Of a DNA stretch of 64,000 nt, positions 4,612 through 31,118 are shown one piece after another. Under the pieces are notes generated by a model. It had not been told where the DNA came from, did not search any database, and saw only the letters and a program-made list of their open reading frames with translations. Numbering within the stretch: the first letter of the stretch is position 1; each line of letters opens with the position of its first letter. This stretch comes from Clostridia bacterium (GTDB taxonomy: Bacteria; Bacillota; Clostridia; Oscillospirales; CAG-272), in NCBI GenBank assembly GCA_017520505.1, contig JAFXFN010000024.1:209-64208 (forward strand). The letters run 5' to 3'. Both the position numbers and the translations under genes were made by a program.

Positions 4612-4618
4612 TAAAACC

Positions 4619-4684
4619 TTCCCCCTCGTGTATTGAAAAACACCGAAAACTGTGCTATAATAGAATCAGAAAGGTGGTGGAAAT
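4619..4684 (+). promoter_or_regulatory. Conserved promoter/5'UTR module, copy C (-35 4633-4638, -10 4656-4661)
   Basis: Same block as 64-130 and 1060-1126, ending at the ATG at 4685. Confidence 0.75.
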
Positions 4685-7802: not shown

Positions 7803-7829
7803 TGAGTGTAAATAAATCGAGGGACAGAA

Positions 7830-8129
7830 ATGGGAATTTCCAAAAAAACTAAAGCGGTATTATTCGGCTTGGTGTACGGATCTAATCTTTTGTCGGCGTT
7901 CTTTCTTTGGCTGTGCGGTGTATACGGTAATATTATGCTCGGTATACTGCTTATTGTATTTTACCGCTTGAGCTTATGGTCTGCGCCTTTTTTGGTAAGC
8001 GTTATTTGCCAGCTTCCGTCGGTGCCTCGGATTCCGTTTAATAAAAAACTTTTATATAATTTGTTTCATTTGATTTTGTGCGGTATGCTTTTTTTGCTGT
8101 GCTATCTTTTGTTTGGAAATTGGTATTGA
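7830..8129 (+). CDS. Small membrane protein (99 aa)
   Basis: Three hydrophobic helices, a GAGGGA RBS, and a terminator at 8146-8170. Confidence 0.55.
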   Translation: MGISKKTKAVLFGLVYGSNLLSAFFLWLCGVYGNIMLGILLIVFYRLSLWSAPFLVSVICQLPSVPRIPFNKKLLYNLFHLILCGMLFLLCYLLFGNWY

Positions 8130-8497
8130 GATCAATATTTATTCTGCGGGAGGCTCGTCCTCCTGCTTTTATGTTGTAAAATACGGTGCAGAATACATAA
8201 AACAAGGCAAAATCATAGGCGCTTGAATCTGTCGGGTTTTTATCCCGTTTGTGTTTTTTATTCTACAAGCTGCGGGGTTTATTTTCATTTGATTCAACTT
8301 GATGGCGAGCCTCGATTTACGGCATATATTATGCGATTTTAAATTTTTATGAATTTTGGGGAAATACTTGTCTTTTTGTGACTTGTTTGGTATAATGCTC
8401 CTTATGTGAAATCAAGTAACGAAAGAAGATGATCTTTGTGCGTAACCCTTTTGCGGTTTCGTCTATGATACCCGCGCGCTTTGTTCAGGGAGAGCTT

Positions 8498-9838
8498 ATG
8501 AGCGCAAGACAGATGTACGGAGAATTTTTCAAAATTGCCGCACCGTCTGTTGTTGAACTTGTTTTAACGAGTCTTATAGGTATGGTCGACACGCAGATGG
8601 TGTCGGGACTCGGCGATGCCGCCATTGCCTCGGTATCTCTCGTCGTTCAGCCGAGGATGCTCGTTTTGAGCTTATTTATGGCGCTTAACGTGGGCGTTAC
8701 GGCGACACTTGCAAGGCGAAAGGGTGAGGGCAGGCAGGATGCCGCAAGGCATACTCTTCGCTCGGTGCTTTGGATAATGCTTGCCGCATCGGTCGTTGTG
8801 ACCGTAATTGCGGAGCTTATTGCAGAGCCGATGATGATTTTTGCGGGCGCAAACGAGGAAACGCTTGCGCTGTCGTGTACATACTACAAAATATTTATTG
8901 CCGCCACACCGATGCAGGTGCTTTTGCTGGTGCTTGGCGCATCACAGCGAGGCATCGGAAACACGAAGGTCGTGATGATAGTGAATATCGTCGGAAATCT
9001 CGTCAACGTGCTTTTGAACTGGCTGTTTATACACGGCAACTGCGGATTTCCTGCGATGGGTGTTGCAGGTGCGGCGCTTGCCTCGGCGATCGGCGTTTGC
9101 GTGTCAGCAATCGGTCTTCTCATATCGGTGCTTTTGCCGAAGGCTTATTTAAGACTTACTTTACACGGTTCGTGGCTTCCGAATAAGGAAATAATCCGTG
9201 CTGTCACAAAGGTCGGCGGAAATGCTATTATTGAGCAAATGGCAATGCGTATCGGATTTTTCCTTTCCGCCATAATGATAGCGCACCTCGGCACGGGAAC
9301 CGTTGCGGCGCATAACATCTGTATGCAGATGCTTAATCTGACGTGGACGGTGTCAGAGGGGCTTGCCGTTGCCGCAACGAGCCTTGTCGGTCAGAATATG
9401 GGCAAAAACCGCCCCGACCTTTCGATGCTCTACGGCAAAGCCGCACAGAGAATTGCGCTTGTGGCATCCGTTGTATTGGCGGCGGTCACGATCGTGTTCC
9501 GCTATCAGTTCATTTCCTTGTTTACCGCAAAAAGCGATCCTGCGGTCATATCGATGTGCGCATCGATCATGCTGTGGGTGGCATTTTTCCAGCCGTTTCA
9601 GATGGGTGCGGTTGCAGTCATGGGAAGCTTGCGAGGGGCAGGAGATACGAAATTCGTTTCTTATATGACGATGATAACGATAGGCATCGTGCGCCCTGTC
9701 GTATCTGCACTGTGCGTTTACGTGCTCAGTATGAATGTATACGGTATATGGATGGGAATGTATGCCGATATGATAGTCAGAATGTTTATATCATTACACC
9801 GTTTTTCAAAGGGCAAGTGGATGAATATAAAGATTTGA
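8498..9838 (+). CDS. MATE family efflux transporter
   Basis: 12-TM profile. The N-terminus ...FFKIAAPSVVELVLTSLIGMVDTQMVS is typical of MATE. Start taken at the ATG at 8498 after a GGGAGA RBS. Confidence 0.8.
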   Translation: MSARQMYGEFFKIAAPSVVELVLTSLIGMVDTQMVSGLGDAAIASVSLVVQPRMLVLSLFMALNVGVTATLARRKGEGRQDAARHTLRSVLWIMLAASVVVTVIAELIAEPMMIFAGANEETLALSCTYYKIFIAATPMQVLLLVLGASQRGIGNTKVVMIVNIVGNLVNVLLNWLFIHGNCGFPAMGVAGAALASAIGVCVSAIGLLISVLLPKAYLRLTLHGSWLPNKEIIRAVTKVGGNAIIEQMAMRIGFFLSAIMIAHLGTGTVAAHNICMQMLNLTWTVSEGLAVAATSLVGQNMGKNRPDLSMLYGKAAQRIALVASVVLAAVTIVFRYQFISLFTAKSDPAVISMCASIMLWVAFFQPFQMGAVAVMGSLRGAGDTKFVSYMTMITIGIVRPVVSALCVYVLSMNVYGIWMGMYADMIVRMFISLHRFSKGKWMNIKI

Positions 9839-16785: not shown

Positions 16786-16867
16786 GCAAAAATGAGTTCG
16801 AAGCGGGTCGTGTAGTTCGTGGTGAGCCGCAAACCTTACAGTGTACGCTTTGGCGAAAGAGGATAAA

Positions 16868-17488
16868 ATGAGCGATTTTACGTATGAAAATGTAGATAAA
16901 GTAACACCGCTTGAAACATACGAGTGGGATAACGTGTGGATTCAGAGAACGGACGATAAAAAATCGCCCCGTGTGCTGTACATCGGAGATTCCATATCGT
17001 GTGCTTTGCGTGTGTTCGGTAACGGTGTGACAAAGGAAGAAATTTTGATTGACAGCTTCGGCACGTCGAAGGCGATCGATAATCCGTATTATTGGGATGC
17101 TTTGCGCTTGTTCAGCCTGCAGGAGGGACACCGTGACGTCGTTTTGTTCAATAACGGACTTCACGGATGGCATCTTGATGACGAAAATGATTATCCTGCT
17201 TATTACGAGCAAATGCTATGCAAGATCCTTGACGAATTCAAGGGCTCAAAGATTGTCATTGTGCTGACTACTGCCGTTGCAAAGGAAGAAAGACACAGAC
17301 GTGTAAAGGTGAGAAACGGTGCTGTTAAAAAGATTGCGGAAAAATATAGCCTTGACGTTATCGACCTTTATACCGTATCTGAGGAAAACATGAACCTTTT
17401 GGGAGATGACGGCGTTCATTTCAACGCTGACGGCTACACGTGTCTTTCGGAGTATCTTGTTAAAGAAATCAAACGTATATTAAAATAA
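16868..17488 (+). CDS. SGNH/GDSL hydrolase
   Basis: GDSIS block I and DGVHFN block V. Confidence 0.7.
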   Translation: MSDFTYENVDKVTPLETYEWDNVWIQRTDDKKSPRVLYIGDSISCALRVFGNGVTKEEILIDSFGTSKAIDNPYYWDALRLFSLQEGHRDVVLFNNGLHGWHLDDENDYPAYYEQMLCKILDEFKGSKIVIVLTTAVAKEERHRRVKVRNGAVKKIAEKYSLDVIDLYTVSEENMNLLGDDGVHFNADGYTCLSEYLVKEIKRILK

Positions 17489-17508: not shown

Positions 17509-18042
17509 ATGAAAATTCTTTTTGTGGGAAACAGCCATACGTATAACTACGAAGTACCTTACCGTGTTATGCAGGTTGCAAAAAAAGACGGTGTTGAGGT
17601 TGAAGCGTTTATGAACGCACACGGCGGCTGGACACTTTTTGGTCACTCAAAGGAGCCTGACGTGCCTTTCAATATTATGAACGGCAAATTTGACTACGTT
17701 GTTTTCCAGGAGCACGCACATCCGTTTGACCACGACGGCAATATGACGGCGGCTTGCGAGAAAATGGCGAAGATGTGCCACGACGTCGGCTCGGTACCTG
17801 TATACTTTATGGTATGGCCTCAGAAGTGGGAAAGAGAAAGACAGCCTATCTACACAGAGGGAACGAACCGTGTCGCAGAGCTTACGGGCGGTCTTGTAGC
17901 GCCTGTCGGCGTGAAGCTTTGGGAAGCGATCGACGCAAATCCCGACGTTGAGTATTTTTCTCCCGACGGCGGACACCTCTCAGCAGAGGGTGCAGACCTT
18001 GCCGCAGAGATAATCTGGAATACGATAAAGGGCAATAAATAA
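17509..18042 (+). CDS. SGNH-like hydrolase
   Basis: FVGNSHT block I and DGGHLS block V. Confidence 0.6.
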   Translation: MKILFVGNSHTYNYEVPYRVMQVAKKDGVEVEAFMNAHGGWTLFGHSKEPDVPFNIMNGKFDYVVFQEHAHPFDHDGNMTAACEKMAKMCHDVGSVPVYFMVWPQKWERERQPIYTEGTNRVAELTGGLVAPVGVKLWEAIDANPDVEYFSPDGGHLSAEGADLAAEIIWNTIKGNK

Positions 18043-18063: not shown

Positions 18064-18129
18064 GTAGTTCGCTGTACAGCGAACTACTTTGCTCGTTCGT
18101 ATGAAATGAACAAAAAACATATTTCCGCT
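18064..18129. repeat. REP-like hairpins: GTAGTTCG-CTGTACAG-CGAACTAC (18064-18087) and CATATTTCC-GCTA-GGAAATATG (18108-18129)
   Basis: Perfect stems. Both families recur elsewhere in the window. Confidence 0.7.
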
Positions 18130-18424
18130 AGGAAATATGCGCCATACGCCCGCAAGGCAATTTGCTTCGCAAATTGTGGGGGGTGCGGGCATGGCGCCGT
18201 TGTCACATACCTATGAAATGAAGAAAAATGGGTTTGAAGCGGCGGGAGTAGTCTCGCTGTGGCTCGGTCACGTTCGGGTTCTGACATACCACCGGTATGT
18301 CATTCATTACCCTCACGCCGCTTCGCTACCCCCGCCCTACAACACAGTCCTTGAATAAAACGAGCGGAAATGGGACAAAACGAACGAATGTTTGTTTTAA
18401 GTTCGAGAAATTCCAAAATCTGTA

Positions 18425-18453
18425 TTGACAAAATCGTGATTTTGTGGTATAAT
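18425..18453 (+). promoter_or_regulatory. Consensus sigma-A promoter of the phage-like cluster (TTGACA-N17-TGgTATAAT)
   Basis: -35 at 18425-18430, -10 at 18448-18453, extended -10 TG at 18445-18446. Confidence 0.7.
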
Positions 18454-18554
18454 ACGCACATCAGTTCGGAACAGGCAACTGCCCGACTGAAATGATATGC
18501 GATAATTATACCACTTTTTCTTTTGATTTCTCTAACTTCATAAGGAGGTTTACG

Positions 18555-18791
18555 ATGTGCGAATACTGTTATTCGTCACCGCATCTCAGGGGCTGCCCTG
18601 CAGGTGGTGACGACGGTGAAAAATATGCGAACAAATGTTCGTATTGTGGCGGAAGTTTTCAAGACGGAGACGGAGTTGTTCTGGGAACGGAAGCTTATTG
18701 CGATGACTGTATTGACGATTTTGACCTTGATGATGTTTTACAGATATCAGGTCACAGCAATGCAAAGGAGCTTTTAAGAGAGCTTGTATAG
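18555..18791 (+). CDS. Small Cys-rich (zinc-ribbon-like) protein, first gene of the phage-like cluster
   Basis: MCEYC...GCP...CSYCG...CDDC. ATG at 18555 after an AAGGAGG RBS. Confidence 0.6.
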   Translation: MCEYCYSSPHLRGCPAGGDDGEKYANKCSYCGGSFQDGDGVVLGTEAYCDDCIDDFDLDDVLQISGHSNAKELLRELV

Positions 18792-18799
18792 GAAGGACT

Positions 18800-19135
18800 A
18801 TGTTGAAGATTAACAACGGAAAAAGATTTTTACAGTCAATAGAAAAATATACCTGTGTCTGCAATTCCGACGACAGACTTCCCAATCTTGCGGGGTATCT
18901 CCGCTTTATGGGAATGACCGACGAGGAATACGCAAAGCTTTGCGAGAAGTTCCCGAAGCAGGCACAGCTTGCCATGTCGGTCTTTGAGGACGAGGCACTT
19001 AATTCGGGAACGAAAAAAATATCGGCATCCGTGCTCAATCTCTATCTGAAAAGCCGTTTCGGCTACGGCGGAGATGACAAGCACGATGACGACGGAATTT
19101 TAAGCGTTGTGTGCGAGCACAGCGACGGCGAATGA
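18800..19135 (+). CDS. Putative terminase small subunit
   Basis: 111 aa. Its stop overlaps the TerL start (ATGA). The call rests on position and size. Confidence 0.5.
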   Translation: MLKINNGKRFLQSIEKYTCVCNSDDRLPNLAGYLRFMGMTDEEYAKLCEKFPKQAQLAMSVFEDEALNSGTKKISASVLNLYLKSRFGYGGDDKHDDDGILSVVCEHSDGE

Positions 19136-20448
19136 AAAAGCTTTACTTGAAGGGCACGCCGAACAAAAAGCAGGAGCTGTTTTTCTCATCAAAAGCCAAG
19201 TTCACCGCCTACGGCGGTGCAAGGGGCGGCGGCAAAAGCTGGGCGCTTCGGCGCAAGCTCGTGCTTTTGTGTCTTCGCTACGCAGGGATAAAATGTCTTA
19301 TAATCAGACGAAGCTTTCCTGAGCTTCAGTATAACCACATACTGCCGCTTCGTGCGGAGCTTGGTGAGTGCGTGAAGTATTCAGAATCGGGGAAATGCTT
19401 TAAATTTCCCAACGGCTCTGTTTTGAAGCTCGGATATATGTCCGATGACGGTGACACACTTCAGTATCAGGGGCAGGAATACGACATAATCGCCCTTGAC
19501 GAGGCAACACAGCTGACCGAATACCGATTTTCAGCTTTAAAAGCGTGTCTTCGAGGCACGAACGGTTATCCGAAAAGAATGTATCTTTCGTGTAACCCCG
19601 GCGGTGTCGGTCACGCCTGGGTGAAGCGTTTGTTCATCGACAGAATATACCACGACGGGGAAAACCCCGATGATTACGCCTTTATTCAGGCGACGGCTTA
19701 TGACAATACCGTGCTGATGGAAAAGGACGGCGAATATATAAACACTCTGAAATCACTTCCGAAGGAGCTTCGTGCCGCCTGGCTTGACGGCAGGTGGGAC
19801 CTTTTTGAAGGACAGTTCTTCTCTGAAATTTCAGAGGATATCCACGTCATTCCGCCGTTTGAGCTTCCGTACGGTGTGCGCCGTATCGGCGGACTTGACT
19901 ACGGCTTCGATATGCTTGCGTTTGTCTGTCTTGCCATTGACGAGGACGGACGTGTTTACGTTGAGCGTGAGTACAGCGAGCCGAATTTGACCTTGTCATC
20001 TGCGGCACATAAAATAGCCGAGATGTGCCGAGGGCTTGATGTTGACTATATTTCCGCATCGCCCGATTTATGGAACAGACGGCAGGACAGCGGACTTTCG
20101 GGCTTTGAGATAATGGCAAACGTTCACGGTATGCCGCCGCTTATAAAGGCGGATAACAGGCGTGTTCCCGGTTGGCGTGCGCTTCGTGAATATCTCAAGG
20201 CTGACGGCGGTGAGCCGAAAATGAAATTTTTTAAGACGTGCTTTGACACGTTCCGATGTCTTTCATCTCTTACGTACGATAAGACGAAAGCAGAGGATGC
20301 CTCGGACACTCCGCACGAGATAACGCATCTGCCCGAGGCGCTTCGGTATGCGGTGATGTCGAGAATACAGCGTGCAGACACCGCCGAGGAAATGTACAAT
20401 ATGAGAAAAAGACGATATGAAAACAGAAATAATTTGGCAAATTACTGA
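19132..20448 (+). CDS. Phage terminase large subunit
   Basis: Walker A YGGARGGGKSW, Walker B-like DIIALDEAT, and a C-terminal nuclease-like half. Confidence 0.85.
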   Translation: MKKLYLKGTPNKKQELFFSSKAKFTAYGGARGGGKSWALRRKLVLLCLRYAGIKCLIIRRSFPELQYNHILPLRAELGECVKYSESGKCFKFPNGSVLKLGYMSDDGDTLQYQGQEYDIIALDEATQLTEYRFSALKACLRGTNGYPKRMYLSCNPGGVGHAWVKRLFIDRIYHDGENPDDYAFIQATAYDNTVLMEKDGEYINTLKSLPKELRAAWLDGRWDLFEGQFFSEISEDIHVIPPFELPYGVRRIGGLDYGFDMLAFVCLAIDEDGRVYVEREYSEPNLTLSSAAHKIAEMCRGLDVDYISASPDLWNRRQDSGLSGFEIMANVHGMPPLIKADNRRVPGWRALREYLKADGGEPKMKFFKTCFDTFRCLSSLTYDKTKAEDASDTPHEITHLPEALRYAVMSRIQRADTAEEMYNMRKRRYENRNNLANY

Positions 20449-20462
20449 CTTTTAGGAGGTAT

Positions 20463-22037
20463 ATGGAAAATAAAACAAAGGCTTGGGAGCAATACGAGGC
20501 CGGTGTTGAATACAAAAGGCGCATAGGTCTTTACACAACTGTGCGTGAAAACGAGCGCTTTTACAGAGGCGAGCAATGGGAGGGCGTGAACGCAAACGGT
20601 CTGCCAACTCCCGTGTTCAACATCATTAAGCGTATTGTTTCGTATATGATAAGCACCGCCACCTCACAGCCGATAAGTGTGAGCTACAGCGACGATTCGC
20701 TGAGCGTTATCGGCAGTGAACGGCTGAAAAAGCAGATCTCCGACGGTATCGAGCTGCTCAACAAAAACGTGTCGTACAGGCTTGACAAGGACAAGATAGA
20801 GTCGCTTGTCAGGGGTGCTATGCTCGATGCGGCTGTGTCGGGCGACGGGGTGTTTTACACCTTCTGGGATTCCGACATAAAGACGGGGCAGATATATACG
20901 GGTGACATAAGAACGGTTTTGTGCGACAATACGGATTTATTTGTTGCCAACGTGAACAGCCGTGACATTCAAAGGCAGGATTACGTGATGCTCAAGGGGC
21001 GTGACACGGTCGAGCATCTGAAAAAGGAAGCCCTCGAAAACGGTGTTTCGCCCAAGGATGCTGAGAAGATAGTTCCCGACGATACGGAGGGCATAGGTGC
21101 AGGTGAGCTTTTCGACATTGAGAGCGAAAACGATGAATATGCTACGTTTCTGCTCAAATTCAGCCGTGATGAAAACGGATACGTCGTGTGGGAGAAAGCC
21201 ACACAGTCCACCGTTATCAAAACGTGTCAAACGAAGATGAGAAGATACCCGATAGCGTACTTTTCGTGGGAGAACGCAAAGGGCTCATTTATCGGAAATT
21301 CACCCGTTACGGCTCTTATTCCCAATCAGAAATACATCAACAAGGCTTACGCCATGGTGATGAAGCATATGACGGACACCGCATTTTCAAAGGTCATTTA
21401 TGACAAGACTCTCATTCCCGAATGGACGAATGAGGTCGGTGAGGCGGTCGGTGTCAAGGGCGGTGACGTCAGAGGTGCGGCTGTTGCCCTCGGTGCGGGT
21501 AACATGCAAAGCGGATTTCTTGACGTTATCAATCTGACGATGATGCACACGAAGGAGCTGATGGGGGCGACCGATGCCGCACTCGGTGAGGTCGATCCCG
21601 ACAACACCTCGGCTATCCTTGCGCTTCAGGAATCGTCAAACGTTCCGCTTGAAAACATAAGACAGAATCTTTACGCTTGTATTGAGGACCTTGCCCTCAA
21701 CTGGGCGGAGATGATGTTTGAATATTATCCCGAGGGCAGATTCCTGCCCTATGACGATAACGGAGAGAGCAAAAGCGGCAAGATGCCCGACTACGAGCTT
21801 TTTAAAAATTCCGTTATCCGTGCCCGTGTTGACGTGGGGGCGGGCACGAAATACTCGCAGATAGTTGCGGTTAATACGCTTGACAAGCTTTTGTCGGGCG
21901 GATTTATCGGAATTGAGGATTATCTTGAAAGACTGCCCGACGGCATAATTTCCGACAAGCGTGAGCTTATTGAAAAAGCCGTGCTTCGTCAGAAGAGTTC
22001 CGAGCAGACGGAAACGGAGGCAATCGATGGACAATGA
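20463..22037 (+). CDS. Phage portal protein
   Basis: 524 aa, immediately after TerL. Acidic C-terminus. The call rests on position, size and general resemblance. Confidence 0.65.
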   Translation: MENKTKAWEQYEAGVEYKRRIGLYTTVRENERFYRGEQWEGVNANGLPTPVFNIIKRIVSYMISTATSQPISVSYSDDSLSVIGSERLKKQISDGIELLNKNVSYRLDKDKIESLVRGAMLDAAVSGDGVFYTFWDSDIKTGQIYTGDIRTVLCDNTDLFVANVNSRDIQRQDYVMLKGRDTVEHLKKEALENGVSPKDAEKIVPDDTEGIGAGELFDIESENDEYATFLLKFSRDENGYVVWEKATQSTVIKTCQTKMRRYPIAYFSWENAKGSFIGNSPVTALIPNQKYINKAYAMVMKHMTDTAFSKVIYDKTLIPEWTNEVGEAVGVKGGDVRGAAVALGAGNMQSGFLDVINLTMMHTKELMGATDAALGEVDPDNTSAILALQESSNVPLENIRQNLYACIEDLALNWAEMMFEYYPEGRFLPYDDNGESKSGKMPDYELFKNSVIRARVDVGAGTKYSQIVAVNTLDKLLSGGFIGIEDYLERLPDGIISDKRELIEKAVLRQKSSEQTETEAIDGQ

Positions 22038-22356
22038 GCGTTTTACCTCGGAAACGGAGGAGTTTTACGAAAATTTCCCCGACGTTGACCTCGACACGGT
22101 AAGCGATGACGTGTGGCAGAGCGTTAAAAACGGCGAGCGTCTTACAGACGCCTACCGCCGTGAAAGAAACGCCGAGGCGCAGGCGTTAGCCCGTAACGAA
22201 AAGAACCGAATGTCGTCGTCTGGTGCTGTCGGCAAGACGGTGCGCCAAAGAGGCGTTTACAACGAGCGTGACGTGCGTGCGATGAGCCCGAAGCAGGTAC
22301 ACGATGAATACGATAATATCATCAAAAGTATGAGTGGGAAAGGGTTCTTTAAGTGA
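22027..22356 (+). CDS. Putative scaffolding protein (109 aa, charged, helical)
   Basis: ATG at 22027 overlaps the portal stop. Charged, low-complexity composition. Lies between the portal and capsid genes. Confidence 0.45.
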   Translation: MDNERFTSETEEFYENFPDVDLDTVSDDVWQSVKNGERLTDAYRRERNAEAQALARNEKNRMSSSGAVGKTVRQRGVYNERDVRAMSPKQVHDEYDNIIKSMSGKGFFK

Positions 22357-23011
22357 GCGGGGATGGGGTTCACCCTCTCCGTCGGTAGTTGGTTTACCAA
22401 CTACAACCACCATCCCCCAAAGGGGGAGGCATAACATCACATCGGATAAAATTGGCGGAAATGGGTTTGAAAATGAAATGCCTGTGGTATGAAATGTTAT
22501 CCGTTGTGCGGATAACATTGTAAACAATCCTCCCACCAAGCTTACGCTTGGTCCCCCCTCCTTTACACAAGGAGGGCTTGGGTGAACGGGGATGGGATTA
22601 AAACACCTCATCCACCGCAAGCAAGGTGTATCAGGGCGATACACCGGTAGTTGACCTTGTCAACTACAAGTCCCGTCCTTTTCCCGCTGGGGAAGGCAGA
22701 ACATTATAACCGTAGTATCTTGTTTCACATAAATTTTTACGGTGACGGCGCCATGCCCGCACCCCCCACGGCTCGCAGGCGTAACGGTAGTTCGCCCGAG
22801 CCGCCCTGCGGGCGAATGGCGCAGATTTCCTACGGAAATCTATTTGTAACATTTAAGAAGAAACAAGGCAGTAGAAAAATGAAAAAGGTAGAATATCACG
22901 CCGGGCTTGCGTTTTCGGGCGGTGTAGTTCGTGGTTCGCCACGAACTACATGAATCTACCCCTACAAATCACGTTGAATTTAAATAACATAAAAAGAAAG
23001 GAAAAATAAAT
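22357..23011. repeat. 655-bp block of REP-like hairpins inside the phage-like operon
   Basis: GTAG hairpins at 22385-22404, 22647-22667, 22788-22816 and 22924-22949. CCCCTACA at 22959-22966. 24-nt motif at 22449-22472. No credible ORF. Confidence 0.75.
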
Positions 23012-23851
23012 ATGGCTATTACACAGTTTATACCTACAGTGTGGAGTGAAACGCTCTACAGACAGCTTGACAAGGAATATATTGCAGTTAAGAACTGCTC
23101 AAGAGAATTTGAGGGCGATATCAAGAATATGGGTGACACGGTAAAGATCATCGGTCTTAACCCCATCAACGTATTCGACTACACCAAGAATACGGATATG
23201 TCAGCCCCCGGTGAGCTTTCGGACAACGTCCGTATGCTTACCGTCAACCGTGCAAAGGCGTTCAATTTCGTCATTGACGATATTGAAGCGGCGCAGACGT
23301 CTCCCGTTATTATGAAGGAGGCTATGCGTGTTGCCGCAAGCGCACTTTCAAACGAAGCGGACAAGTATATTTACTCCCTTTATGAAACAGTGCCCACGGA
23401 GAACGTCATCAAGTCAGACTCTCTTACATCTGACGGCGTGCTTGACCTTTTGCTGAATGCTCAGCAGAAGCTTCTTGAAAAGAACGTACCCGGCAATGAG
23501 GAGATCGTGCTTGAAGTACCGCCTTGTGTTGCGGCAAAGATCATCAAGGCGAAGATAATGAACGGCACGTCAAACGAGGAGGAGCTTGACAAGGGCTGTA
23601 TCGGCAAGTTCCTCGGCTTCAGGATCTACGTTTCAAACAATATCGTGAACGCTCAGAATTACCACAAGTGCTTTGCAAGAACAAAGCGTGCCATCGCCTT
23701 TGCAGAGCAGATAAACGAGGTTGAGGCATACCGTCCCGAAAAGCGTTTTGCCGATGCTGTAAAGGGACTTCACCTTTACGGCGCAAAGGTCGTTTATCCC
23801 GACGAGATACTTGTGCTTGACATAAGCGTGGGTGACGAAGCGGGCGCATAA
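23012..23851 (+). CDS. Major capsid protein (HK97-fold, P22-coat-like small type)
   Basis: 279 aa. The N-terminus ITQFIPTVWSETL... resembles coat proteins. Position fits the head module. Confidence 0.6.
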   Translation: MAITQFIPTVWSETLYRQLDKEYIAVKNCSREFEGDIKNMGDTVKIIGLNPINVFDYTKNTDMSAPGELSDNVRMLTVNRAKAFNFVIDDIEAAQTSPVIMKEAMRVAASALSNEADKYIYSLYETVPTENVIKSDSLTSDGVLDLLLNAQQKLLEKNVPGNEEIVLEVPPCVAAKIIKAKIMNGTSNEEELDKGCIGKFLGFRIYVSNNIVNAQNYHKCFARTKRAIAFAEQINEVEAYRPEKRFADAVKGLHLYGAKVVYPDEILVLDISVGDEAGA

Positions 23852-24237
23852 TGAAATGCAGTGACGTTTTTGAGCTTGCGGCATCATATATCGGCGAGGA
23901 TGCCGAGGCTGTTGATTTTGCAGAGCTTGCACGCCGTTTACCGCCGATGCTCGGCGCAGTTATATCCGAGCACATTCCGCTTGACAAGATACTGACAGAC
24001 GGACAGACGCCGTACCCCGCAATGGGACAGATACGTGACGGGGAGGATGTTTTTCCGCTGTGTGACGAATGCGCCGTTTTATGCGCCTTGCGCCTCGGCA
24101 TACTTCTTATTGCCGATGAAAACCCCGAGCTTGCTTCGTTTTTGTCGGGTGAATATACACGGGTGCGCTCCTCGGCACTTTCTTCTGTGAGTGCGCACAG
24201 AGAAAGCATAAAGGATATGTATCCCGGTATCGTTTAA
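23851..24237 (+). CDS. Hypothetical phage protein (possible head-tail adaptor)
   Basis: 128 aa. Its start overlaps the capsid stop (TAATG). Confidence 0.4.
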   Translation: MKCSDVFELAASYIGEDAEAVDFAELARRLPPMLGAVISEHIPLDKILTDGQTPYPAMGQIRDGEDVFPLCDECAVLCALRLGILLIADENPELASFLSGEYTRVRSSALSSVSAHRESIKDMYPGIV

Positions 24238-24247
24238 GGAGGTGCTT

Positions 24248-25969
24248 ATGGCATTTTTTAAAAAGAGTCACAAATTTCAGATGACAGTCAGTTCCTTTAA
24301 CGGAACTGACTGTACAAAAAAGGTGACAAATGCAATATCATCCGCTGAATATATGCGTAATTTCAGAATTACGGAAAACGGCAAGCTTCAGAAAAGATAC
24401 GGCTACAAGAGGCTTGCGGATATACAGGGAGAAGATATTTACGTGTCGGACGGTGTAATTTTTTACCGCAACGGTAAGACACTTAACGCATATAATATAG
24501 ATAAGCAGACGATAGTATCATCGTATGAGCTGGGTGTGATGGGCAAGACCGTTTATTTTACATTCGGCGGTGCGGTGTACTGCGTTTGCGAGGACGAAAT
24601 AGTTGTTTATGAATACGGCCGTTTTGAAGAAAGTGAGCCGTACGTGCCGACGATAGCAATTACCTGCTCACCTGACGGCGGCGGTACTTTGCACGAGTCG
24701 CTGAATCTGCTTTGCGATATGGCGAAGATGTCCTTTTCGCCCGACGGGGTTGCGGTGAAATATAAGCTTCCGTCAAGCTCGGTCGGTGTGGAATACGTGA
24801 CGAAGGACGGCTTTGATATGCCTGTGGATAAATATTCATTCGATCTGTCATCCCACACGGTCACGTTTATAGAACCGCCCGAAGGCGGTGTTTCCGACAG
24901 CTTGCAGATAACATTTTTGATGTCGAGCAATTCGATAGACAAAAGAGTGCTTCACGGCCGCCGCTTTTGCATATATGGCGGTGAATTTGACAGCAGAGTT
25001 TTTGCCTACGGCGGTGACAACGTCATATTTTATTCGGATATAACGTCAAGGGGTGCTGATCCGCTTTATTTTCCTGCGGATAACTACATAAAGGTCGGTG
25101 ACGGTACGTACGACGTTACGGCACTCGTGCGCCATTATTCAACGCTCGCCGTGTTCACATCGGGCGATGCGTGGTACATTTCGCCGTCAAGTGTTGACTA
25201 CGACGGCTACAGAAAGCCGTCGTTCCCGATATATCCTCTCAACGGAAGCGTTGGCACGTCGTACGGCTGTGCGGCACTTGTTGATAACTCACCTCTGACG
25301 GTGAACGAGGACGGCGTGTATTTGTGGCGTGCGACAAACGTGCGTGACGAAAGAAACGCCGTGTGTATATCGGAGCGCATTGAACCGCTTTTGCACAGCT
25401 ATTTCCTTGAAAATGCGGGGGTTTTTGACTATCAGAGCAAAAAGGAGCTGTGGATATACAATTTCGGCACGGTTATGATATATAACTACGGTCTTGACGT
25501 CTGGTATGCCTTTGACGGCATTAATGCCGACGTTATGTATGAGCACGGCGGTGAGGTGCTTTTTGCAAATGCCTCGGGTGTTTACATTTTTGACTCCGAG
25601 GTATATACCGATGACGGCAAAGCGTATAAGGCGATATGGCAAAGCGGCTTTGCCAATTTCGGACGGATAGACAAAAAAAGACTGTATATGCTCTACGCAT
25701 CGCTTGTGCCGGAGCCGTGCAGTAATATAAAAATAACGCTCGTTCCGAACACGGGCGAGCGTGTGACCGTCGGAGAAAACGGAGAATTTTCAAATGAGGT
25801 TCTTGACTTTTCAGCCCTCGATTTTTCCGATTTTACGTTTGAATGTGAGGGCAGGCCTGCCCTTACAAGGCACAGAATTCGTCTGCGCCGATTTGACAGC
25901 GTGCGCCTTATAATTGAAAATTCATACCCTGACAGCCGTGCGACAGTAGAAAGGGTAGTGATAAGCTGA
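24248..25969 (+). CDS. Large hypothetical phage structural protein (573 aa; tail/nozzle candidate)
   Basis: ATG at 24248, 6 nt after an AAGGAGG RBS. Beta-rich with repeated aromatic/Gly motifs. I recognise no family. Confidence 0.5.
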   Translation: MAFFKKSHKFQMTVSSFNGTDCTKKVTNAISSAEYMRNFRITENGKLQKRYGYKRLADIQGEDIYVSDGVIFYRNGKTLNAYNIDKQTIVSSYELGVMGKTVYFTFGGAVYCVCEDEIVVYEYGRFEESEPYVPTIAITCSPDGGGTLHESLNLLCDMAKMSFSPDGVAVKYKLPSSSVGVEYVTKDGFDMPVDKYSFDLSSHTVTFIEPPEGGVSDSLQITFLMSSNSIDKRVLHGRRFCIYGGEFDSRVFAYGGDNVIFYSDITSRGADPLYFPADNYIKVGDGTYDVTALVRHYSTLAVFTSGDAWYISPSSVDYDGYRKPSFPIYPLNGSVGTSYGCAALVDNSPLTVNEDGVYLWRATNVRDERNAVCISERIEPLLHSYFLENAGVFDYQSKKELWIYNFGTVMIYNYGLDVWYAFDGINADVMYEHGGEVLFANASGVYIFDSEVYTDDGKAYKAIWQSGFANFGRIDKKRLYMLYASLVPEPCSNIKITLVPNTGERVTVGENGEFSNEVLDFSALDFSDFTFECEGRPALTRHRIRLRRFDSVRLIIENSYPDSRATVERVVIS

Positions 25970-26268
25970 TGACATTTGACGAGGTGGCCCTGATCTCGGA
26001 AAGACACGAGATGCAGATAAAGTCTTTACAGCATCAGATAAATGACATAAAAGAGGTCACAAAGGAAATCAAAACAATGAATGAAACACTTATCGTTCTG
26101 ACAGAGGAGCTGAAGCATACGAACAACACTTTGAAATCATACGATGACAGGCTTGACACCCTGGAGGTAATGCCGAAAAACAGATGGAACACGCTTGTGA
26201 ACGCCGTGCTGACGGCTATCGTATCGGGGCTTGTGGGCTATGCCGCAGCGCATTTCGTCGGAATGTGA
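25969..26268 (+). CDS. XhlA-like lysis-associated membrane protein
   Basis: N-terminal coiled coil plus a single C-terminal TM helix. Precedes holin and amidase, as in xhlA-xhlB-xlyA. Confidence 0.6.
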   Translation: MTFDEVALISERHEMQIKSLQHQINDIKEVTKEIKTMNETLIVLTEELKHTNNTLKSYDDRLDTLEVMPKNRWNTLVNAVLTAIVSGLVGYAAAHFVGM

Positions 26269-26282
26269 AAGGGGGTAGCTGA

Positions 26283-26588
26283 TTGCAGATAAATGATTTT
26301 CTCACCTGGCAGATGCTTGCGGGATTTTCCTGCATGGCAGCAGCGGTGGGAGTTCTTACACAGTTTTTCAAGGGGCTTTTTGATAAATTACCCGTCAGAG
26401 TGCCGACACGTGCGGTATCGTATATATTCGCTCTTTTGCTTCTTTTCGGCACGACGTACTTTACGGCAGATGCAGGGGCGTCGGAGTATTTCCTCTGCCC
26501 CGTCAACGCCGTATTCGTATCGTTTTCCTCAAACGGTGCGTTTGACTTCATAAAATCACTTTCTGACAAGGGGGACGGCGATGCTTAA
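26283..26588 (+). CDS. Holin
   Basis: 101 aa with 2-3 TM helices, immediately upstream of and overlapping the amidase. TTG start after a GGGGGT RBS (the alternative is ATG at 26313). Confidence 0.6.
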
Positions 26589-27609
26589 AATAACGCTTGA
26601 TCCGGGACACGGCGAAAACGCCAACAAGGGCGTGCTTCCCGATTATTACGAGGGAAAAAGGATGTTTCGATTAGCGGAATACTTAAAGGCAGAGCTTGAA
26701 AAATACGGCATTGATGCCGAGATGACGAAAAACAGAGTGAGTGACGATCCCACCCTGTCGTCAAGGGGAAATACGGCTGTGAAAAACGGCTCGGAGGTGT
26801 TTATATCACTTCATTCAAATGCGGCAGGAAGCGAAAAGGCGTGCGGTGTGTCGTCGTTTTACTCCGTAAAGCTTCCCGAAAGCCGTGAGCTTCTGACAAG
26901 GCTCGTCGATAAGGTGACGGCGGTTATGAACAAAAAGACGGGTGTCACATACAAAAGGGGCGTTATGACAAGAACGTACCAAAGCGGAGGCAGGGAGTAC
27001 GACTACTACGGCGTCATCAGAAATTCTATAGGCGGCGATGTCAGATATTCGTTTATCATCGAGCACGGATTTCACACAAACGAAAGGGAATGTGCGTTTT
27101 TGCTCGACGATGAGAATTTAAAGGATATAGCACGTGCCGAAGCCGAGGTCATCGCTGAATATTTTTCTCTTGAAGCGGAGGAAAATACGGAAAACGACGA
27201 GTCGGTTTACACGGTGCAAAAGGGCGATACGCTGTCGAAGATCGCTTCACTTTACGGTCTTTCTGTGACATCGCTTGCCGAATATAACGCCATTGAAAAC
27301 CCCAATCTTATTATTGTCGGTCAGAAGATACGGATACCGAAGGCGGATGAGCAAACGGTGCAGGTGGGTGACATTGTACGGCTGAAGGAGGGAACGGTAA
27401 CGTATTTCCCCGGAGGCAATCCGTTTTCGCCGTGGGTTAAAAATTACGATTATGCTGTTATGAAGGATTCTGACTCGCTTGGTAAGCCCGTTTACCGAGG
27501 TGGAGACCTTTGTGTGCTTTTAGGCGAAAGAGTGAACAGAAAAACAGGAGAACGAGGCGGTGCGATCAAATCCTGGTGCAGTGTAAATTACATAGATAAG
27601 GTTAAATGA
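26581..27609 (+). CDS. N-acetylmuramoyl-L-alanine amidase endolysin (Amidase_3 + LysM + C-terminal binding domain)
   Basis: DPGHG, SLHSNA and EHGFHTN motifs. LysM: [20 protein letters not shown]...GQKIRIP. Confidence 0.85.
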
Positions 27610-27622
27610 AAGGAATATAAAT

Positions 27623-28399
27623 TTGGCAATATCAACGTTCAATGAAAATCTTGATATAATCGCTTCCTTGCCGACTTGCCCCACGTCGCCCGAATATACG
27701 GCGGATGAGGTCAAGGGTAAGTTTGACGAGGGAGCGAAAAAAATAAAGGAGTATATAAACGGTACGCTTATACCGCAGATACTCGATGAGCTTGCAAATA
27801 CCGCCACGGGCGACGGCGCATATAAATATATTCCGTGCAAAAGACTGCTGAAGCAGTATAAAACGGCAGGGACATATATCTTTGATACGGAGGAATTTCC
27901 CTCCTTTACGGGTGTTTACGATGTCGTGCTTGTCGGCGGTGGCGGCGGAGGATATAATAGCGGCGAAAAGCAGGGCGGCGGCGGAGGTGCTGTCACGGAG
28001 CTTATCGGCGTTGACCTCGTCGGCAGATATACCGTGAACGTAGGCGCAGGCGGTGCGGTGTCAAACGGACTTTTTCCGAATGACGGCGAGAGCACCTATG
28101 TTACAAATGCGGGCGACGAAGTCGATTTTTATGAATATGCCGCAGGCGGACAGGGCGCTGACGGCGGAAAAACACGTGCAAGAGGCGGCGGTGTCGGCGC
28201 AACGGATGCCGTACCCAATGACGGTGCGGATGCCTACGGCGCAGGCGGTGACAGCATCGGCTACGGTACGGGCGCAAAGGGCGCAGGTATCGATGACAGC
28301 ATCATTCATCCCAAGGGCTACGGCGGTGGCGGCTGGGGAGCTGTTTCGGGCGGATGCGGCACGGTGCTTATATACGGATACGTAAGACAGGAGGTATAA
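27623..28399 (+). CDS. Glycine-rich tail-fibre/receptor-binding-like protein
   Basis: The N-terminus (LPTCPTSPEYTADEVKGKFDEGAKKIKEYINGTLIPQI) resembles Firmicutes phage fibre N-termini. Gly-rich C-terminal half (VGGGGGGYNSGEKQGGGGGA). Confidence 0.55.
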   Translation: MAISTFNENLDIIASLPTCPTSPEYTADEVKGKFDEGAKKIKEYINGTLIPQILDELANTATGDGAYKYIPCKRLLKQYKTAGTYIFDTEEFPSFTGVYDVVLVGGGGGGYNSGEKQGGGGGAVTELIGVDLVGRYTVNVGAGGAVSNGLFPNDGESTYVTNAGDEVDFYEYAAGGQGADGGKTRARGGGVGATDAVPNDGADAYGAGGDSIGYGTGAKGAGIDDSIIHPKGYGGGGWGAVSGGCGTVLIYGYVRQEV

Positions 28400-28400
28400 A

Positions 28401-29357
28401 TTGTCATCTTATAACAGAGATACGAAATCTTACGAAAGCTATGAAATGCTTTCAAAATTGCTTAACAGCAATAAAAAGGAGAATATCGATACGGTTTACG
28501 ATACTCTCAAAAAGCTCACGGAGCAGAATTATGAGGGAAGCCTTGCGGAAAATGAGGCTGAATACGCCAAGGCAAGGGATACCTTGTCGAGAAACAGAGC
28601 AAAGTCGGAAAAGTACCTCGATTATTTTGTAAACGAGGGCGGATATGCAAACAGCGGTGTAGGTACTGATGCAAGGCTGAAGCAGGAGCTTAATTACGAA
28701 AACAACGTGAGTGCGCTTAACTCCGAGCAGGTCGCTGCAAAGGAAAAGCTTGCAAGAGAAAAGCAGGCGGAGATACTCAGAATAGAAAGCGAGCGTGCAT
28801 CGGCACAGGCGGAAGCTGACACGGAGCTTGCCGATATGGCTTTGAAGAACGAACAGCTCGAGCTTCAGAAAAAGCAGGTCGAGCAGGACAATTATTGGAA
28901 GAGCAAGCAGTATGAGCTTCAGAAAAACGCATATTCAGGTTCTTCCTCGTCTTCATCATCCTCGTCGGGCGGCGGTGCATCACACGGAGATTCGGCGTAC
29001 AGCGCCGTTATGTACAACGAGATGATAAAGAAGCTTTCCGAGTGTAAAAATGCCGATCAAATGCAGGAATTGTACGATTCCATTGTCGGCGAGAACACAG
29101 CGGCGGCACAGGGGATTTACGGAAGCTTTTATTCAAAGCTTCTTTCCGAAATGCGTGAAACGCTTCTGGACAAGCGTGCCGAGGAGGATAACGATGACAA
29201 GGTGCGTGAGATATGCAGACTTATGACGAAGGTTGGGTATAACTCAAATAACGTGTTCATCAATCTCTACAGAGATTCTATGCTTACATCTCATCCGCAG
29301 TACACGACCGAGCAGGTCGAGGAAGCGTACAGACGAGTCATAAGACTCTGGGGCTGA
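28401..29357 (+). CDS. Coiled-coil protein with a poly-Ser tract (318 aa)
   Basis: TTG start after an AGGAGG RBS. Long Glu/Lys/Gln-rich heptad-like region and an S10 tract. Confidence 0.55.
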   Translation: MSSYNRDTKSYESYEMLSKLLNSNKKENIDTVYDTLKKLTEQNYEGSLAENEAEYAKARDTLSRNRAKSEKYLDYFVNEGGYANSGVGTDARLKQELNYENNVSALNSEQVAAKEKLAREKQAEILRIESERASAQAEADTELADMALKNEQLELQKKQVEQDNYWKSKQYELQKNAYSGSSSSSSSSSGGGASHGDSAYSAVMYNEMIKKLSECKNADQMQELYDSIVGENTAAAQGIYGSFYSKLLSEMRETLLDKRAEEDNDDKVREICRLMTKVGYNSNNVFINLYRDSMLTSHPQYTTEQVEEAYRRVIRLWG

Positions 29358-29509
29358 CGGCTGTCTGAAATTTTTATCGGACGAAAAGGATAGACAGCGG
29401 TTTGCAAAATTAAAAGACAGAGGGTTAAAGCGTGATGTTCTTATCGGAGAAATCACAAATCAGTTGGCTCATATGGCGCATATTTGCGATGCAGTAAACA
29501 AATAATTAG

Positions 29510-29546
29510 CCCCGACAGATTTTAAAGTCTGTCGGGGTCATTTTTT
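29510..29546. terminator. Bidirectional terminator closing the phage-like cluster
   Basis: CCCCGACAGA-TTTTAAAG-TCTGTCGGGG followed by TCATTTTTT. Confidence 0.8.
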
Positions 29547-30234
29547 AGTTGTTTATCAATTTATCTACCCATTCTTGAGTTAAAACATATTCTATATCGT
29601 CGATTATGATTGAATATGCTTTGTCATCAAATGACATCACTTGCAAAGGAATAACTATGTTAACATCGTCCTGTATAACACCGCAGGCATATCCGTAGAC
29701 ATAACAGTTTTTCAACATCCCGTCGGGTTGCTTTACCAAATCATACAATCCAGCATCTTTTGCCTTTTGCCCGCTTTTAATTTCATTAAGAAAATCTTCG
29801 CATTCAGTTATTCCGTTTTTTGAGATTATCGTTTCATCACTATTAAAAAGCGAACCTTTTACAAAATCAAATCTAATACAATTATCAATAGTGACTTCTG
29901 TTTTCAGTAATTCGGACTTTACATACATAGCAGCAAACTCATTGTCGGGGAAATATCTTACCAACACATCTTGACTACCATTAACAGAATACATACCTGT
30001 TTTAACCTTATTGGTAAGATGAACAAAGGTCTTTTTTTCTCCCTTTACATGACCGATGAACTCCCATTCTCCAAAGCACCAAACTCTACCCTCGTTGCCG
30101 ACAAAAGTGTATTCAGTGCCGTCGATTGTTACAATGTTTTTATCTTCAGTTTCCGTAAATTTAACTTTATTGGTACAAGCGGAAAAAGAAAAAATAACTA
30201 CCAAACAAATAAAAATAACGAATATCTTTTTCAT
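29545..30234 (-). CDS. Lipoprotein (229 aa), AT-rich
   Basis: Lipobox FSFSAC. Hand count 17/60 G+C at 29581-29640. Confidence 0.7.
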   Translation of the reverse strand: MKKIFVIFICLVVIFSFSACTNKVKFTETEDKNIVTIDGTEYTFVGNEGRVWCFGEWEFIGHVKGEKKTFVHLTNKVKTGMYSVNGSQDVLVRYFPDNEFAAMYVKSELLKTEVTIDNCIRFDFVKGSLFNSDETIISKNGITECEDFLNEIKSGQKAKDAGLYDLVKQPDGMLKNCYVYGYACGVIQDDVNIVIPLQVMSFDDKAYSIIIDDIEYVLTQEWVDKLINN

Positions 30235-30803: not shown

Positions 30804-31025
30804 CTATTTGCTTGATTTTCTTGGGGTGTCGGTTAACCCTGCAAGATAATCAATAGAAACATTATAATATTTTGCCAATACTATAAAATGGTGCATCGGC
30901 ATTTCACGCTTTCCGCTTTCGTAAAGCTGGTATTGCTGTCGGGTAATATTTAAAACCGATGCAATATCCTCTTGTTTTTTATCCGAATCTTCCCTGATAT
31001 CTTTCAATCTTTGATAAATGTACAT
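30804..31025 (-). CDS. XRE-family HTH transcriptional regulator (73 aa)
   Basis: MYIYQRLKDIRED...QEDIASVLNITRQQYQLYESGKREMPMHHFIVLAKYYNVSIDYLAG. Start trimmed to the ATG at 31025. Confidence 0.8.
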   Translation of the reverse strand: MYIYQRLKDIREDSDKKQEDIASVLNITRQQYQLYESGKREMPMHHFIVLAKYYNVSIDYLAGLTDTPRKSSK

Positions 31026-31073
31026 ATACTGTTTCCTATTCAAAATAAAGTTTTGTAAAAATATTATAGCATT

Positions 31074-31118
31074 GCATTCAAAAAAATGCTTGACGTGCAT
31101 TCAAATGAATGCTATAAT
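31074..31118 (+). promoter_or_regulatory. Promoter (TTGACG 31090-31095, TATAAT 31113-31118) with a GCATTCA-AA-TGAATGC operator filling the spacer
   Basis: Perfect 16-bp palindrome at 31097-31112 and a partial copy at 31074-31089. Lies in the divergent region next to the XRE gene. Confidence 0.65.

Follow-up and report, generated by a model that had tools for sequence, protein, structure and literature searches.

A conserved 13-gene operon of uncultured gut Clostridia as a strong candidate for a second family of short-tailed gene transfer agents

Introduction

PBSX of Bacillus subtilis is a chromosomal, SOS-inducible and non-replicating element that packages host DNA, and production of RcGTA, a gene transfer agent (GTA), requires LexA. 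Only a few families of GTAs have been described, and most of the GTA-like packaging signals seen in the gut have yet to be traced to genes (PMC12946183). The closest described counterpart of the locus reported here is FpGTA of Faecalibacterium prausnitzii, whose podovirus-like particles of ~40 nm contain 8.4-8.9 kb of random host DNA (Borodovich et al., Nat Commun 2026, PMC12946183; bioRxiv 2024.11.15.623857). The FpGTA genes lie in a 10.5-kb operon for head and nozzle and a 5.5-kb operon for fiber and lysis (PMC12946183). We analyzed a 64,000-nucleotide stretch of a Clostridia genome (the window), in which positions 18425-29546 of the + strand hold a cluster of 13 tightly packed open reading frames (ORFs; g01 to g13), all co-directional.

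FpGTA and the window cluster are both chromosomal sets of podovirus-like particle genes in gut Clostridia, and both come without replication genes. The FpGTA gene order (TerS, TerL, portal, small protein, capsid, P22 gp10-like nozzle and coiled-coil-rich protein) resembles that of the window, and FpGTA likewise encodes its own holin and endolysin. An earlier note on this DNA took a GTA-like element with a short tail to be unprecedented in Clostridia, a claim superseded by FpGTA, which was published in 2024/2026 (PMC12946183). Judged from its genes, their conservation and their predicted control, the window cluster is a strong candidate for a second, independent family of short-tailed GTAs.

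Results

A single operon encodes the parts of a predicted short-tailed particle

The cluster opens with a sigma-A promoter (18425-18453, +; TTGACA-17-TATAAT with an extended -10 TG) that matches the consensus at 12 of 12 positions and is the sole such site in the 13 kb scanned. It closes with an intrinsic terminator (29509-29546, +) made of a 13-bp stem, with 7 GC pairs, and a T-run. The layout put forward in the earlier note, 13 co-directional genes between a perfect promoter and a strong terminator, is borne out. We corrected three gene starts: g01 to the ATG at 18555, behind AAGGAGG; TerL to the ATG at 19132, which overlaps the stop codon of TerS as ATGA; and the scaffold-like g05 to the ATG at 22027.

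Family searches identify most of the packaging and head genes. The large terminase TerL (g03, 19132-20448, +; 438 aa) carries the Walker A motif GGARGGGKS, matches Terminase_3 and Terminase_6N above cut-off and phrog_979 at E 3e-46, and scores 70.4 bits against the NCBIfam PBSX-family model TIGR01547, below its 105-bit cut-off. Ahead of it lies a candidate for the small terminase TerS (g02, 18800-19135, +; 111 aa), for which we rely on a match to Pfam GP3_package (E 1.5e-4, below the curated cut-off), on position, on the overlap with TerL and on 19 orthologues. The portal (g04, 20463-22037, +; 524 aa) is of the P22 type (PF16510, P22_portal, E 3e-16; phrog_156, E 1e-28) and shares 28% identity with Pagevirus portals. 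The HK97-fold major capsid protein (g06, 23012-23851, +; 279 aa) matches phrog_267 (E 6e-44), Phage_capsid_4/_2 and mycobacteriophage Che8 gp6 (PDB 8E16; E 7e-36 by profile, 6e-29 by single sequence), with no NCBIfam match at E <= 0.01. Between portal and capsid genes, g05 (22027-22356, +; 109 aa) aligns to positions 148-245 of the 263 in profile phrog_14606. It also aligns (E 6e-11) to a 258-aa protein that occupies the scaffold position in L007, a related phage contig of 35 kb; the match covers residues 136-211 of that protein. We regard g05 as a candidate truncated 'mini-scaffold' that matches the C-terminal half of the L007 protein.

We assigned the tail from AlphaFold2 models compared by Foldseek. 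The model of g08 (24248-25969, +; 573 aa; pLDDT 86.4, pTM 0.84) matches the tail of Pa223 (E 8e-18), P22 gp10 (E 2e-15 to 5e-15) and also Sf6, SU10 and T7 gp12, and the protein is 29% identical to the Pagevirus 'virion structural protein' Page_15. On this model, g08 is a podovirus tail nozzle, a tail-tube beta-propeller protein with the P22 gp10/T7 gp12 fold. The model of g07 (23851-24237, +; 128 aa) is a helical bundle (pLDDT 86.7), and about 18 of its top 20 Foldseek matches in PDB are podovirus adaptors (Sf6 gp7, P22 gp4), with probabilities mostly of 0.6-0.98 and template-modeling (TM) scores of 0.4-0.62, but E values of 0.1-1.5. Because g07 lies between the capsid and nozzle genes and has adaptor-type structural matches, we call it, with moderate confidence, a tail adaptor like P22 gp4 and Sf6 gp7. 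With a nozzle and a probable adaptor encoded, the predicted particle is short-tailed and not tail-less; the earlier note, which had allowed for either form, had pointed to structure prediction on the 573-aa and 128-aa proteins as a way to check it.

Three lysis genes follow. The XhlA-like protein g09 (25969-26268, +) has a coiled coil and a C-terminal transmembrane segment at residues 76-97 (phrog_937, E 3e-12; Pfam XhlA, E 1e-4, below cut-off). The candidate holin g10 (26283-26588, +) has no family match; its identity is inferred from two transmembrane segments in the hydropathy profile and its place between the XhlA-like and amidase genes, and its C-terminus is charged. The endolysin g11 (26581-27609, +) combines Amidase_3 (PF01520, E 1e-23) with LysM (PF01476, E 4e-16).

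Behind them lies g12 (27623-28399, +; 258 aa), a candidate glycine-rich tail fiber or receptor-binding protein (Gly_rich_2, E 5e-7). Its first 47 residues can be aligned with the N-terminal end of the 'tail fiber protein' Page_16 (hhalign E 1.6e-4, probability 50%), whose gene comes after the nozzle homologue in phage Page. The last gene, g13 (28401-29357, +; 318 aa), encodes a helical, coiled-coil protein with a variable Ser/Ala-rich linker and no family or PDB match; its N- and C-terminal domains are conserved among 16 aligned orthologues (dN/dS 0.02-0.19), and its alignment to Page_18 by hhalign was not significant. Our guess is a plug, needle or ejection-type virion protein. Profile searches of PDB with g07, g12 and g13 gave nothing significant. 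The first gene, g01 (18555-18791, +), encodes a 78-aa, Cys-rich (CxxC...CxxC) acidic protein for which family searches gave nothing above threshold. It has orthologues in 12 related loci (dN/dS 0.01-0.13) and, as a guess, could be a Zn-ribbon partner of TerS or a regulator.

Searches against protein families agree with the identities first given to TerL, portal, capsid, XhlA-like, endolysin and glycine-rich proteins; for TerS the family match is weak, and the holin call stands on transmembrane segments and position. Family searches with the cluster proteins found no prohead protease, tube, sheath or tape measure. Taken together, the profiles and models show a predicted full kit for a short-tailed particle (packaging, head and tail) plus lysis genes.

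The operon is kept intact and diverges with its hosts

The nozzle protein has 77 homologues, and a scan of GTDB species representatives yielded 27 loci (loci are numbered here with the prefix L), all from metagenome-assembled genomes (MAGs) of uncultured gut or rumen Clostridia. All 13 window proteins could be mapped in identical order in 24 species-level genomes. Both operon ends adjoin housekeeping genes, and the inspected gene tables of related loci contain no integrase. Orthologue lengths are near-invariant (572-582 aa for the nozzle, 277-286 aa for the capsid protein), and after apparent internal stops were checked, ~278 of 279 orthologues are intact. Every gene has a Nei-Gojobori dN/dS of 0.02-0.3 across eight independent genome pairs. 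Compared with the window, the most distant clusters retain 66-74% identity in the capsid protein, 63-67% in the portal and 60-67% in TerL, with 40-46% in the nozzle and 29-38% in the 318-aa protein.

The host genes around the operon have diverged to the same extent. In each close pair, flanking genes share the dS of the cluster genes: 0.15-1.17 and 0.17-1.15, respectively, between the window and L009; 0.25-0.32 and 0.20-0.61 between L017 and L018; and 0.24 and 0.10-0.29 between L022 and L029. Over 105 pairs from 15 genomes, the identity of the neighboring ThrE protein, which ranges from 98% down to 44%, correlates with that of TerL, portal and capsid protein (Pearson r = 0.89) and with that of the nozzle (r = 0.92). 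The arrangement ThrE_2, ThrE, divergent repressor gene and cluster is syntenic in at least 12 species. The host itself belongs to a deep uncultured lineage; the identity of its GlmS outside the species falls to 68%, 55% and then ~47%.

Base composition and repeats are also host-like, as had been proposed. The cluster has 48.6% GC compared with 44.5% for the remaining window, and its genes (GC 0.47-0.54; GC at third codon positions, GC3, 0.52-0.60) match host housekeeping genes (GC 0.43-0.50; GC3 0.45-0.57). A 655-bp gap (22357-23011) separates the scaffold-like and capsid genes in the window; the orthologous gap is 12-23 bp in a deep clade and 52-497 bp elsewhere. The gap in the window carries three host REP-like hairpins (22385, 22647 and 22924), as the earlier note had seen, and other dispersed repeat pieces. 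The hairpin, GTAGTT-N(3-14)-AACTAC, occurs eight times in the window against 0.02 expected; the other copies are at 18064, just upstream of the operon promoter, and at 59835, 63270, 63405 and 63432. These hairpins are genome-specific, being absent from the orthologous loci of other species except L010, a relative of 87% identity. Equal dS of flank and cluster, co-divergence with ThrE, synteny, host-like GC and GC3 and the host REP insertion support the view that the operon has been inherited vertically with its host and kept intact across at least 24 species.

These data also bear on simple prophage decay, which the earlier note had named as the main alternative. An ordinary remnant in slow decay, with late genes retained by chance, would fit a locus that is missing its lysogeny and replication modules, and two observations among the relatives point the same way. 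In L022, from a yak-rumen MAG, the nozzle gene (7189-8925) has an in-frame nonsense codon at 264; this is the sole disrupted orthologue found, and either a true pseudogene or a mistake in assembly could explain it. In the related species L008 and L021, the holin and amidase genes are missing (11742-12875 in L008), with the XhlA-like gene and all structural genes intact; their lysis functions may be encoded elsewhere, by analogy with FpGTA. Against decay stand one disrupted gene among ~279 over saturated-dS divergences, the low dN/dS of every gene, the identical order in 24 species and the conserved promoter and operator described below. We consider this explanation hardly credible and reject it. 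The earlier suggestion of a long-resident, domesticated locus, to be judged by synteny and selection across relatives, is upheld by the same observations together with flank dS and co-divergence with ThrE. An apparent nozzle dN/dS of 1.03 for L022 and L029 is an artefact of the real in-frame stop in L022.

A conserved promoter and LexA boxes suggest SOS-linked control

The promoter, TTGACAAA-N10-TGTGGTATAAT, has been kept in 12 orthologous loci, although synonymous sites are saturated between their clades. We searched for LexA boxes with the Firmicute Cheo consensus CGAACN4GTTCG. At most one mismatch from the consensus, there are four matches in 64 kb, three of them (18381, 18455 and 18628) within 260 bp of the promoter. 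The first, CGAACGAATGTTTG (18381-18394; one mismatch), lies 31 nt upstream of the -35 element, and L017 and L018 have a perfect box at the equivalent place. The second, CGCACATCAGTTCG (18455-18468; one mismatch), lies just downstream of the -10 element and is kept only in the window's own clade (L009, L014). The third, CGAACAAATGTTCG (18628-18641), falls within the coding sequence of g01 and is the only perfect match in 64 kb.

This arrangement recurs among the relatives. A box with 0-1 mismatch lies within 1 kb upstream of TerL in 21 of 21 loci, the exact CGAACAAATGTTCG lies 470-510 nt upstream of TerL in 15 of them, and box density upstream of TerL is 25-fold above that in the rest of the loci. 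The perfect box encodes NKCS in g01, and its four codons are identical in 12 of 13 g01 genes, whereas elsewhere just 6 of 92 comparable invariant residues (N, K, C or S) are likewise fixed in their codon. The residue before the box varies (A, T, P or S) yet keeps xCG. Codons so fixed indicate constraint at the DNA level, and CGAACAAATGTTCG is consistent with a predicted LexA operator. A LexA operator within a coding sequence, with four synonymous sites fixed, would make an instructive example of dual coding.

In most lineages a divergent gene next to the operon encodes a ~205-aa protein with an XRE-type helix-turn-helix (HTH) and a Peptidase_S24 domain (E 5e-27), a predicted CI/LexA-like self-cleaving repressor (minus strand; 4284-4907 in L008, 4237-4854 in L033, 3924-4508 in L003 and 4000-4584 in L017). 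In two species, L003 and L017, it is degenerate: the gene is kept, and the S24 catalytic motif (GDSM...K) is lost. No S24 repressor gene lies beside the window's copy, and the window's clade is without one at this site. Control of the operon looks host-wired and SOS-linked, and from the boxes and the repressor we infer that it is SOS-induced.

Two further symmetric elements were seen. In the deep clade (L022 and L025-L031), a second CGAAC-N4-GTTCG-like site with 0-1 mismatch occupies a fixed place in the portal gene, ~+1860 nt from the TerL start; its conservation could reflect either the coding sequence or an operator role. The 17-nt promoter spacer (18431-18447) contains a symmetric AAAAT-N(4-6)-ATTTT that is kept across clades, including L017 (AAAATTGCAATTTT), L025, L026, L030 and L031; it is a possible second operator. 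Rfam searches found no known RNA inside the cluster, and the fold of the operon's 5' leader is not unusual (z = -0.6).

SOS-type control would also suit a domesticated particle selected for a role other than transfer: a PBSX-like killer ('phibacin'), or SOS-triggered altruistic lysis with release of extracellular DNA, in which DNA is perhaps packaged and not delivered. The lysis cassette follows the PBSX logic of XhlA-like protein, holin and amidase, the NCBIfam family closest to TerL is that of PBSX, and no ejection proteins were recognized; the FpGTA authors, too, leave open a non-transfer function for their element (PMC12946183). Two features speak against such a role, without separating killing from transfer. 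Conservation is among the highest in the TerS, TerL and portal genes, at 60-67% identity in the clusters farthest away, which argues that DNA packaging itself is under selection, and the tail is a non-contractile nozzle with no killing sheath. We regard a non-transfer role as unlikely.

No free virus of the family turned up in the databases searched

We found no member of the family in IMG/VR with nozzle peptide patterns or the conserved promoter pattern; the capsid profile retrieved only relatives of at most 59% identity and with a different gene order. Megablast with the whole cluster gave no DNA match among GenBank phages, and the plasmid database gave only distant capsid-protein matches. 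A phage of ~11 kb with the same genes, which the earlier note saw as a result that would count against domestication, was not found in these searches. MT836592.1, a 9.6-kb 'Bacteriophage sp.' tried as such a phage, is a fragment of a larger, distant one (nozzle 24%, capsid protein 38%), and a 100-kb Subdoligranulum replicon (capsid 36%), tried as a minimal cluster, carries its copy in a larger phage-like region.

The surroundings of the cluster were likewise searched for functions of mobility. Pfam, NCBIfam and PHROGs searches of the ORFs scanned, ~10 kb on each side, revealed no integrase, recombinase or replication domain, and no partition gene lies within that distance. The gene tables of L003, L005 and L008 are also without integrase, replication or excision functions. 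No tRNA was found at the cluster, and no flanking direct repeat (att) exceeds chance: the longest is a 12-mer, equalled or exceeded in 22 of 100 shuffles. The original remark that integrase, replication and long-tail genes and flanking repeats are missing holds over this range.

A mobile mini-phage or satellite could in principle dispense with such genes by using host or helper functions (for example Xer-type recombination and helper replication), and a preferred site could mimic synteny. Its size of 11 kb and its combination of capsid and terminase genes recall capsid-forming satellites, an option raised in the earlier note; the chromosomal site in the window's clade is not the one seen in the ThrE-linked clades; and a CI-like repressor gene is adjacent in most lineages. 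Within ~10 kb of the cluster, however, genes for integrase, replication and primase are missing, as are att repeats; the cluster encodes its own adaptor, nozzle and fiber, holds host REP elements, and is absent from IMG/VR and the GenBank phages; its dS equals that of flanking genes, and it tracks ThrE divergence (r = 0.89) down to 44% identity. With no integrase or replication gene, a tail of its own and a chromosomal position conserved within clades, a satellite is disfavored, and we hold this explanation to be very improbable.

The best viral capsid-protein matches (47-59%) belong to a sister arrangement, TerS-TerL-nozzle-portal-scaffold-capsid-adaptor. We call this type B, with the nozzle gene between the TerL and portal genes, and the window cluster type A. 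Type-B clusters also lie between housekeeping genes on long chromosomal contigs of gut Clostridia MAGs, and are without the shared promoter and LexA-box arrangement. Type B included, the minimal podovirus-type loci seen besides type A between housekeeping genes in such MAGs are L116/L117 (4216-12490 in L116), L118 (4561-11270), L142 (4424-11231), L141 (758-5813) and L032 (3092-10937); one is head-only, without a nozzle gene, and one is without a recognizable TerL. The capsid-protein family has 7,893 matches at E <= 1e-10. Minimal podovirus-type loci seem common in gut Clostridia, and the type-B, head-only and TerL-less loci together with the capsid homologues suggest a large unrecognized superfamily.

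Other features of the window

Directly upstream of the promoter are two SGNH/GDSL hydrolase genes (16841-17488 and 17509-18042, +), found there in the window's clade only. FpGTA operon II encodes an SGNH/GDSL protein that was detected in particles and called an 'RBP anchor' (PMC12946183); the likeness may be coincidental. Downstream, an HTH_3 ORF (30804-31100, -) that we considered as a regulator of the operon has weak similarity to the repressor HTH (E 0.004) and lacks a conserved counterpart in sister genomes. Between this ORF and a 229-aa ORF (29545-30234, -), ~1 kb past the cluster terminator, lies the second of two Gut-1 RNA motifs (Rfam RF01706; 5220-5289, +, and 30567-30637, -; 59.4 and 58.4 bits against a gathering score of 50).

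Farther away, an 89-nt region with promoter and ribosome-binding site, TTGAAAAACACCGAAAACTGTGCTATAAT..., occurs in three copies (52-140, 1049-1137 and 4607-4695; 71-100% identical), each preceding a small + strand ORF; the first Gut-1 RNA comes after the third of these ORFs. An 84-nt direct repeat (59966-60049 and 62174-62257; 85% identity) at the 3' ends of adjacent minus-strand ORFs of 735 and 354 aa suggests that these have paralogous C-termini.

Discussion

We conclude that the cluster is very probably a domesticated, functional particle operon. The locus is best read, from its gene content and history, as a vertically inherited 'viriform' operon derived from a Page/P22-like podovirus. Vertical residence, the lack of autonomy functions, purifying selection and host-type control are generic traits of GTAs and viriforms, and all are found here at the level of sequence. 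In a GTA-like reading, the predicted particles would, as a further step, package and transfer host DNA. The full reading, an SOS-induced, host-DNA-packaging, GTA-like element, is the one we favor, with more reserve than domestication as such.

In this GTA-like model, DNA damage would inactivate LexA, as well as the neighboring CI-like S24 repressor in most lineages, and free the very strong sigma-A promoter. Portal, mini-scaffold and capsid protein would assemble a procapsid, which TerS and TerL would fill by headful packaging. As excision and replication functions are missing, the chromosome would be the sole packaging substrate, taken up at random or processively from a site in the operon. 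Adaptor and nozzle would then close the portal, the glycine-rich fiber and possibly the 318-aa protein would finish the short tail, and the XhlA-like protein, holin and amidase would lyse the producer cell and release a GTA-like particle.

Several points weigh against this model. First, purifying selection alone is expected for an active phage too. Second, the window's clade (window, L009 and L014) sits in a different neighborhood, where GDSL genes take the place of ThrE upstream, and ThiF and MiaB lie downstream (a downstream flank common to L011), which implies at least one relocation or flank rearrangement; and the L022 nozzle stop shows an orthologue that is not intact. Third, Che8, the source of the closest solved capsid protein (nine chains in the asymmetric unit), builds a large capsid, so the capacity of the predicted particle might exceed 11 kb, and the operon itself could then fit inside. 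Fourth, ejection proteins, needle and plug were not recognized in family and PDB searches, and the roles of g01, g12 and g13 are guesses. Fifth, LexA binding is predicted from a Firmicute consensus. Finally, the source genomes are incomplete MAGs of uncultured hosts, which limits any estimate of prevalence within the clade.

More broadly, and tentatively, the cluster could reflect an ancient, independent domestication of a Page-like podovirus, at family level or deeper, into a single-operon, LexA-switched GTA, one branch of a much larger superfamily of minimal podovirus-type loci among the housekeeping genes of gut Clostridia (type A, type B and head-only). Such a superfamily would supply the missing genetic basis of GTA-like packaging signals in gut viromes for those taxa in which GTA genes had not been found; we put this reading below an even chance. 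If the GTA reading is true, short-tailed GTAs arose more than once in Clostridia, and SOS-triggered export of chromosomal DNA is a conserved trait of a whole uncultured gut lineage. The locus offers a small set of 13 genes with clear limits and unusually strong comparative evidence for domestication. Its single promoter and the LexA boxes are handles on regulation, and its nozzle, capsid protein and promoter-box arrangement can serve as markers for such elements in virome and metagenome data.

Among phages, the window shares the tail hub of P22-like podoviruses (portal, adaptor and nozzle, the adaptor at moderate confidence). Its nearest cultured relatives are the Pageviruses, the ~40-kb Bacillus megaterium podophages Page, Pony, Pascal and their relatives (portal 28%, nozzle 29%), and the metagenomic contig L007 also matches its TerL, scaffold, capsid protein and amidase. 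Unlike the window cluster, Pagevirus and L007 are true phages: their genomes of 35-40 kb include modules for replication, recombination and regulation and encode large tail proteins (e.g., 1,556-1,679 aa), tailspikes and a scaffold-position protein of ~260 aa, compared with 109 aa in the window.

Among domesticated and satellite elements, PBSX has in common with the window the XhlA-holin-amidase lysis logic and the SOS link. The window TerL is nearest to the PBSX-family model, yet under its cut-off (70 vs 105 bits), and PBSX has ~30 genes and a long contractile tail, whereas the window has no sheath, tube or tape-measure matches. The RcGTA-type GTAs of Alphaproteobacteria are, like the window cluster, vertically inherited, under purifying selection, host-regulated and free of replication and integration genes; they differ in a siphovirus-type tail, in unrelated genes dispersed over several loci and in a documented packaging size of 4 kb. 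Capsid-forming phage-inducible chromosomal islands (cf-PICIs) resemble the window in being small and having their own TerS, TerL, portal and capsid genes. However, cf-PICIs and other satellites carry integrase, repressor and replication genes and hijack the tails of helper phages, whereas the window cluster has a nozzle, adaptor and fiber of its own.

FpGTA is close in organization. The window nozzle g08 matches 8eap_D (E 5e-15), from the same PDB entry that the FpGTA authors cite for RCH50846. FpGTA has particle, proteomic and DNA-size data, whereas the window cluster is known from its genes alone. Going by its published descriptions, FpGTA differs in three respects: (i) its capsid protein is annotated as N4-gp56 family, whereas that of the window is Phage_capsid_4/Che8 gp6-like and has no NCBIfam match; (ii) a Prp protease gene lies between its portal and capsid genes, where the window has g05, which is scaffold-like and without a Prp match; and (iii) its genes are split into two operons 125 kb apart, whereas the window has one operon that includes the lysis and fiber genes. 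Because of these three differences, the window cluster seems to stem from another podovirus lineage that was domesticated independently, and not to be an orthologue of FpGTA.

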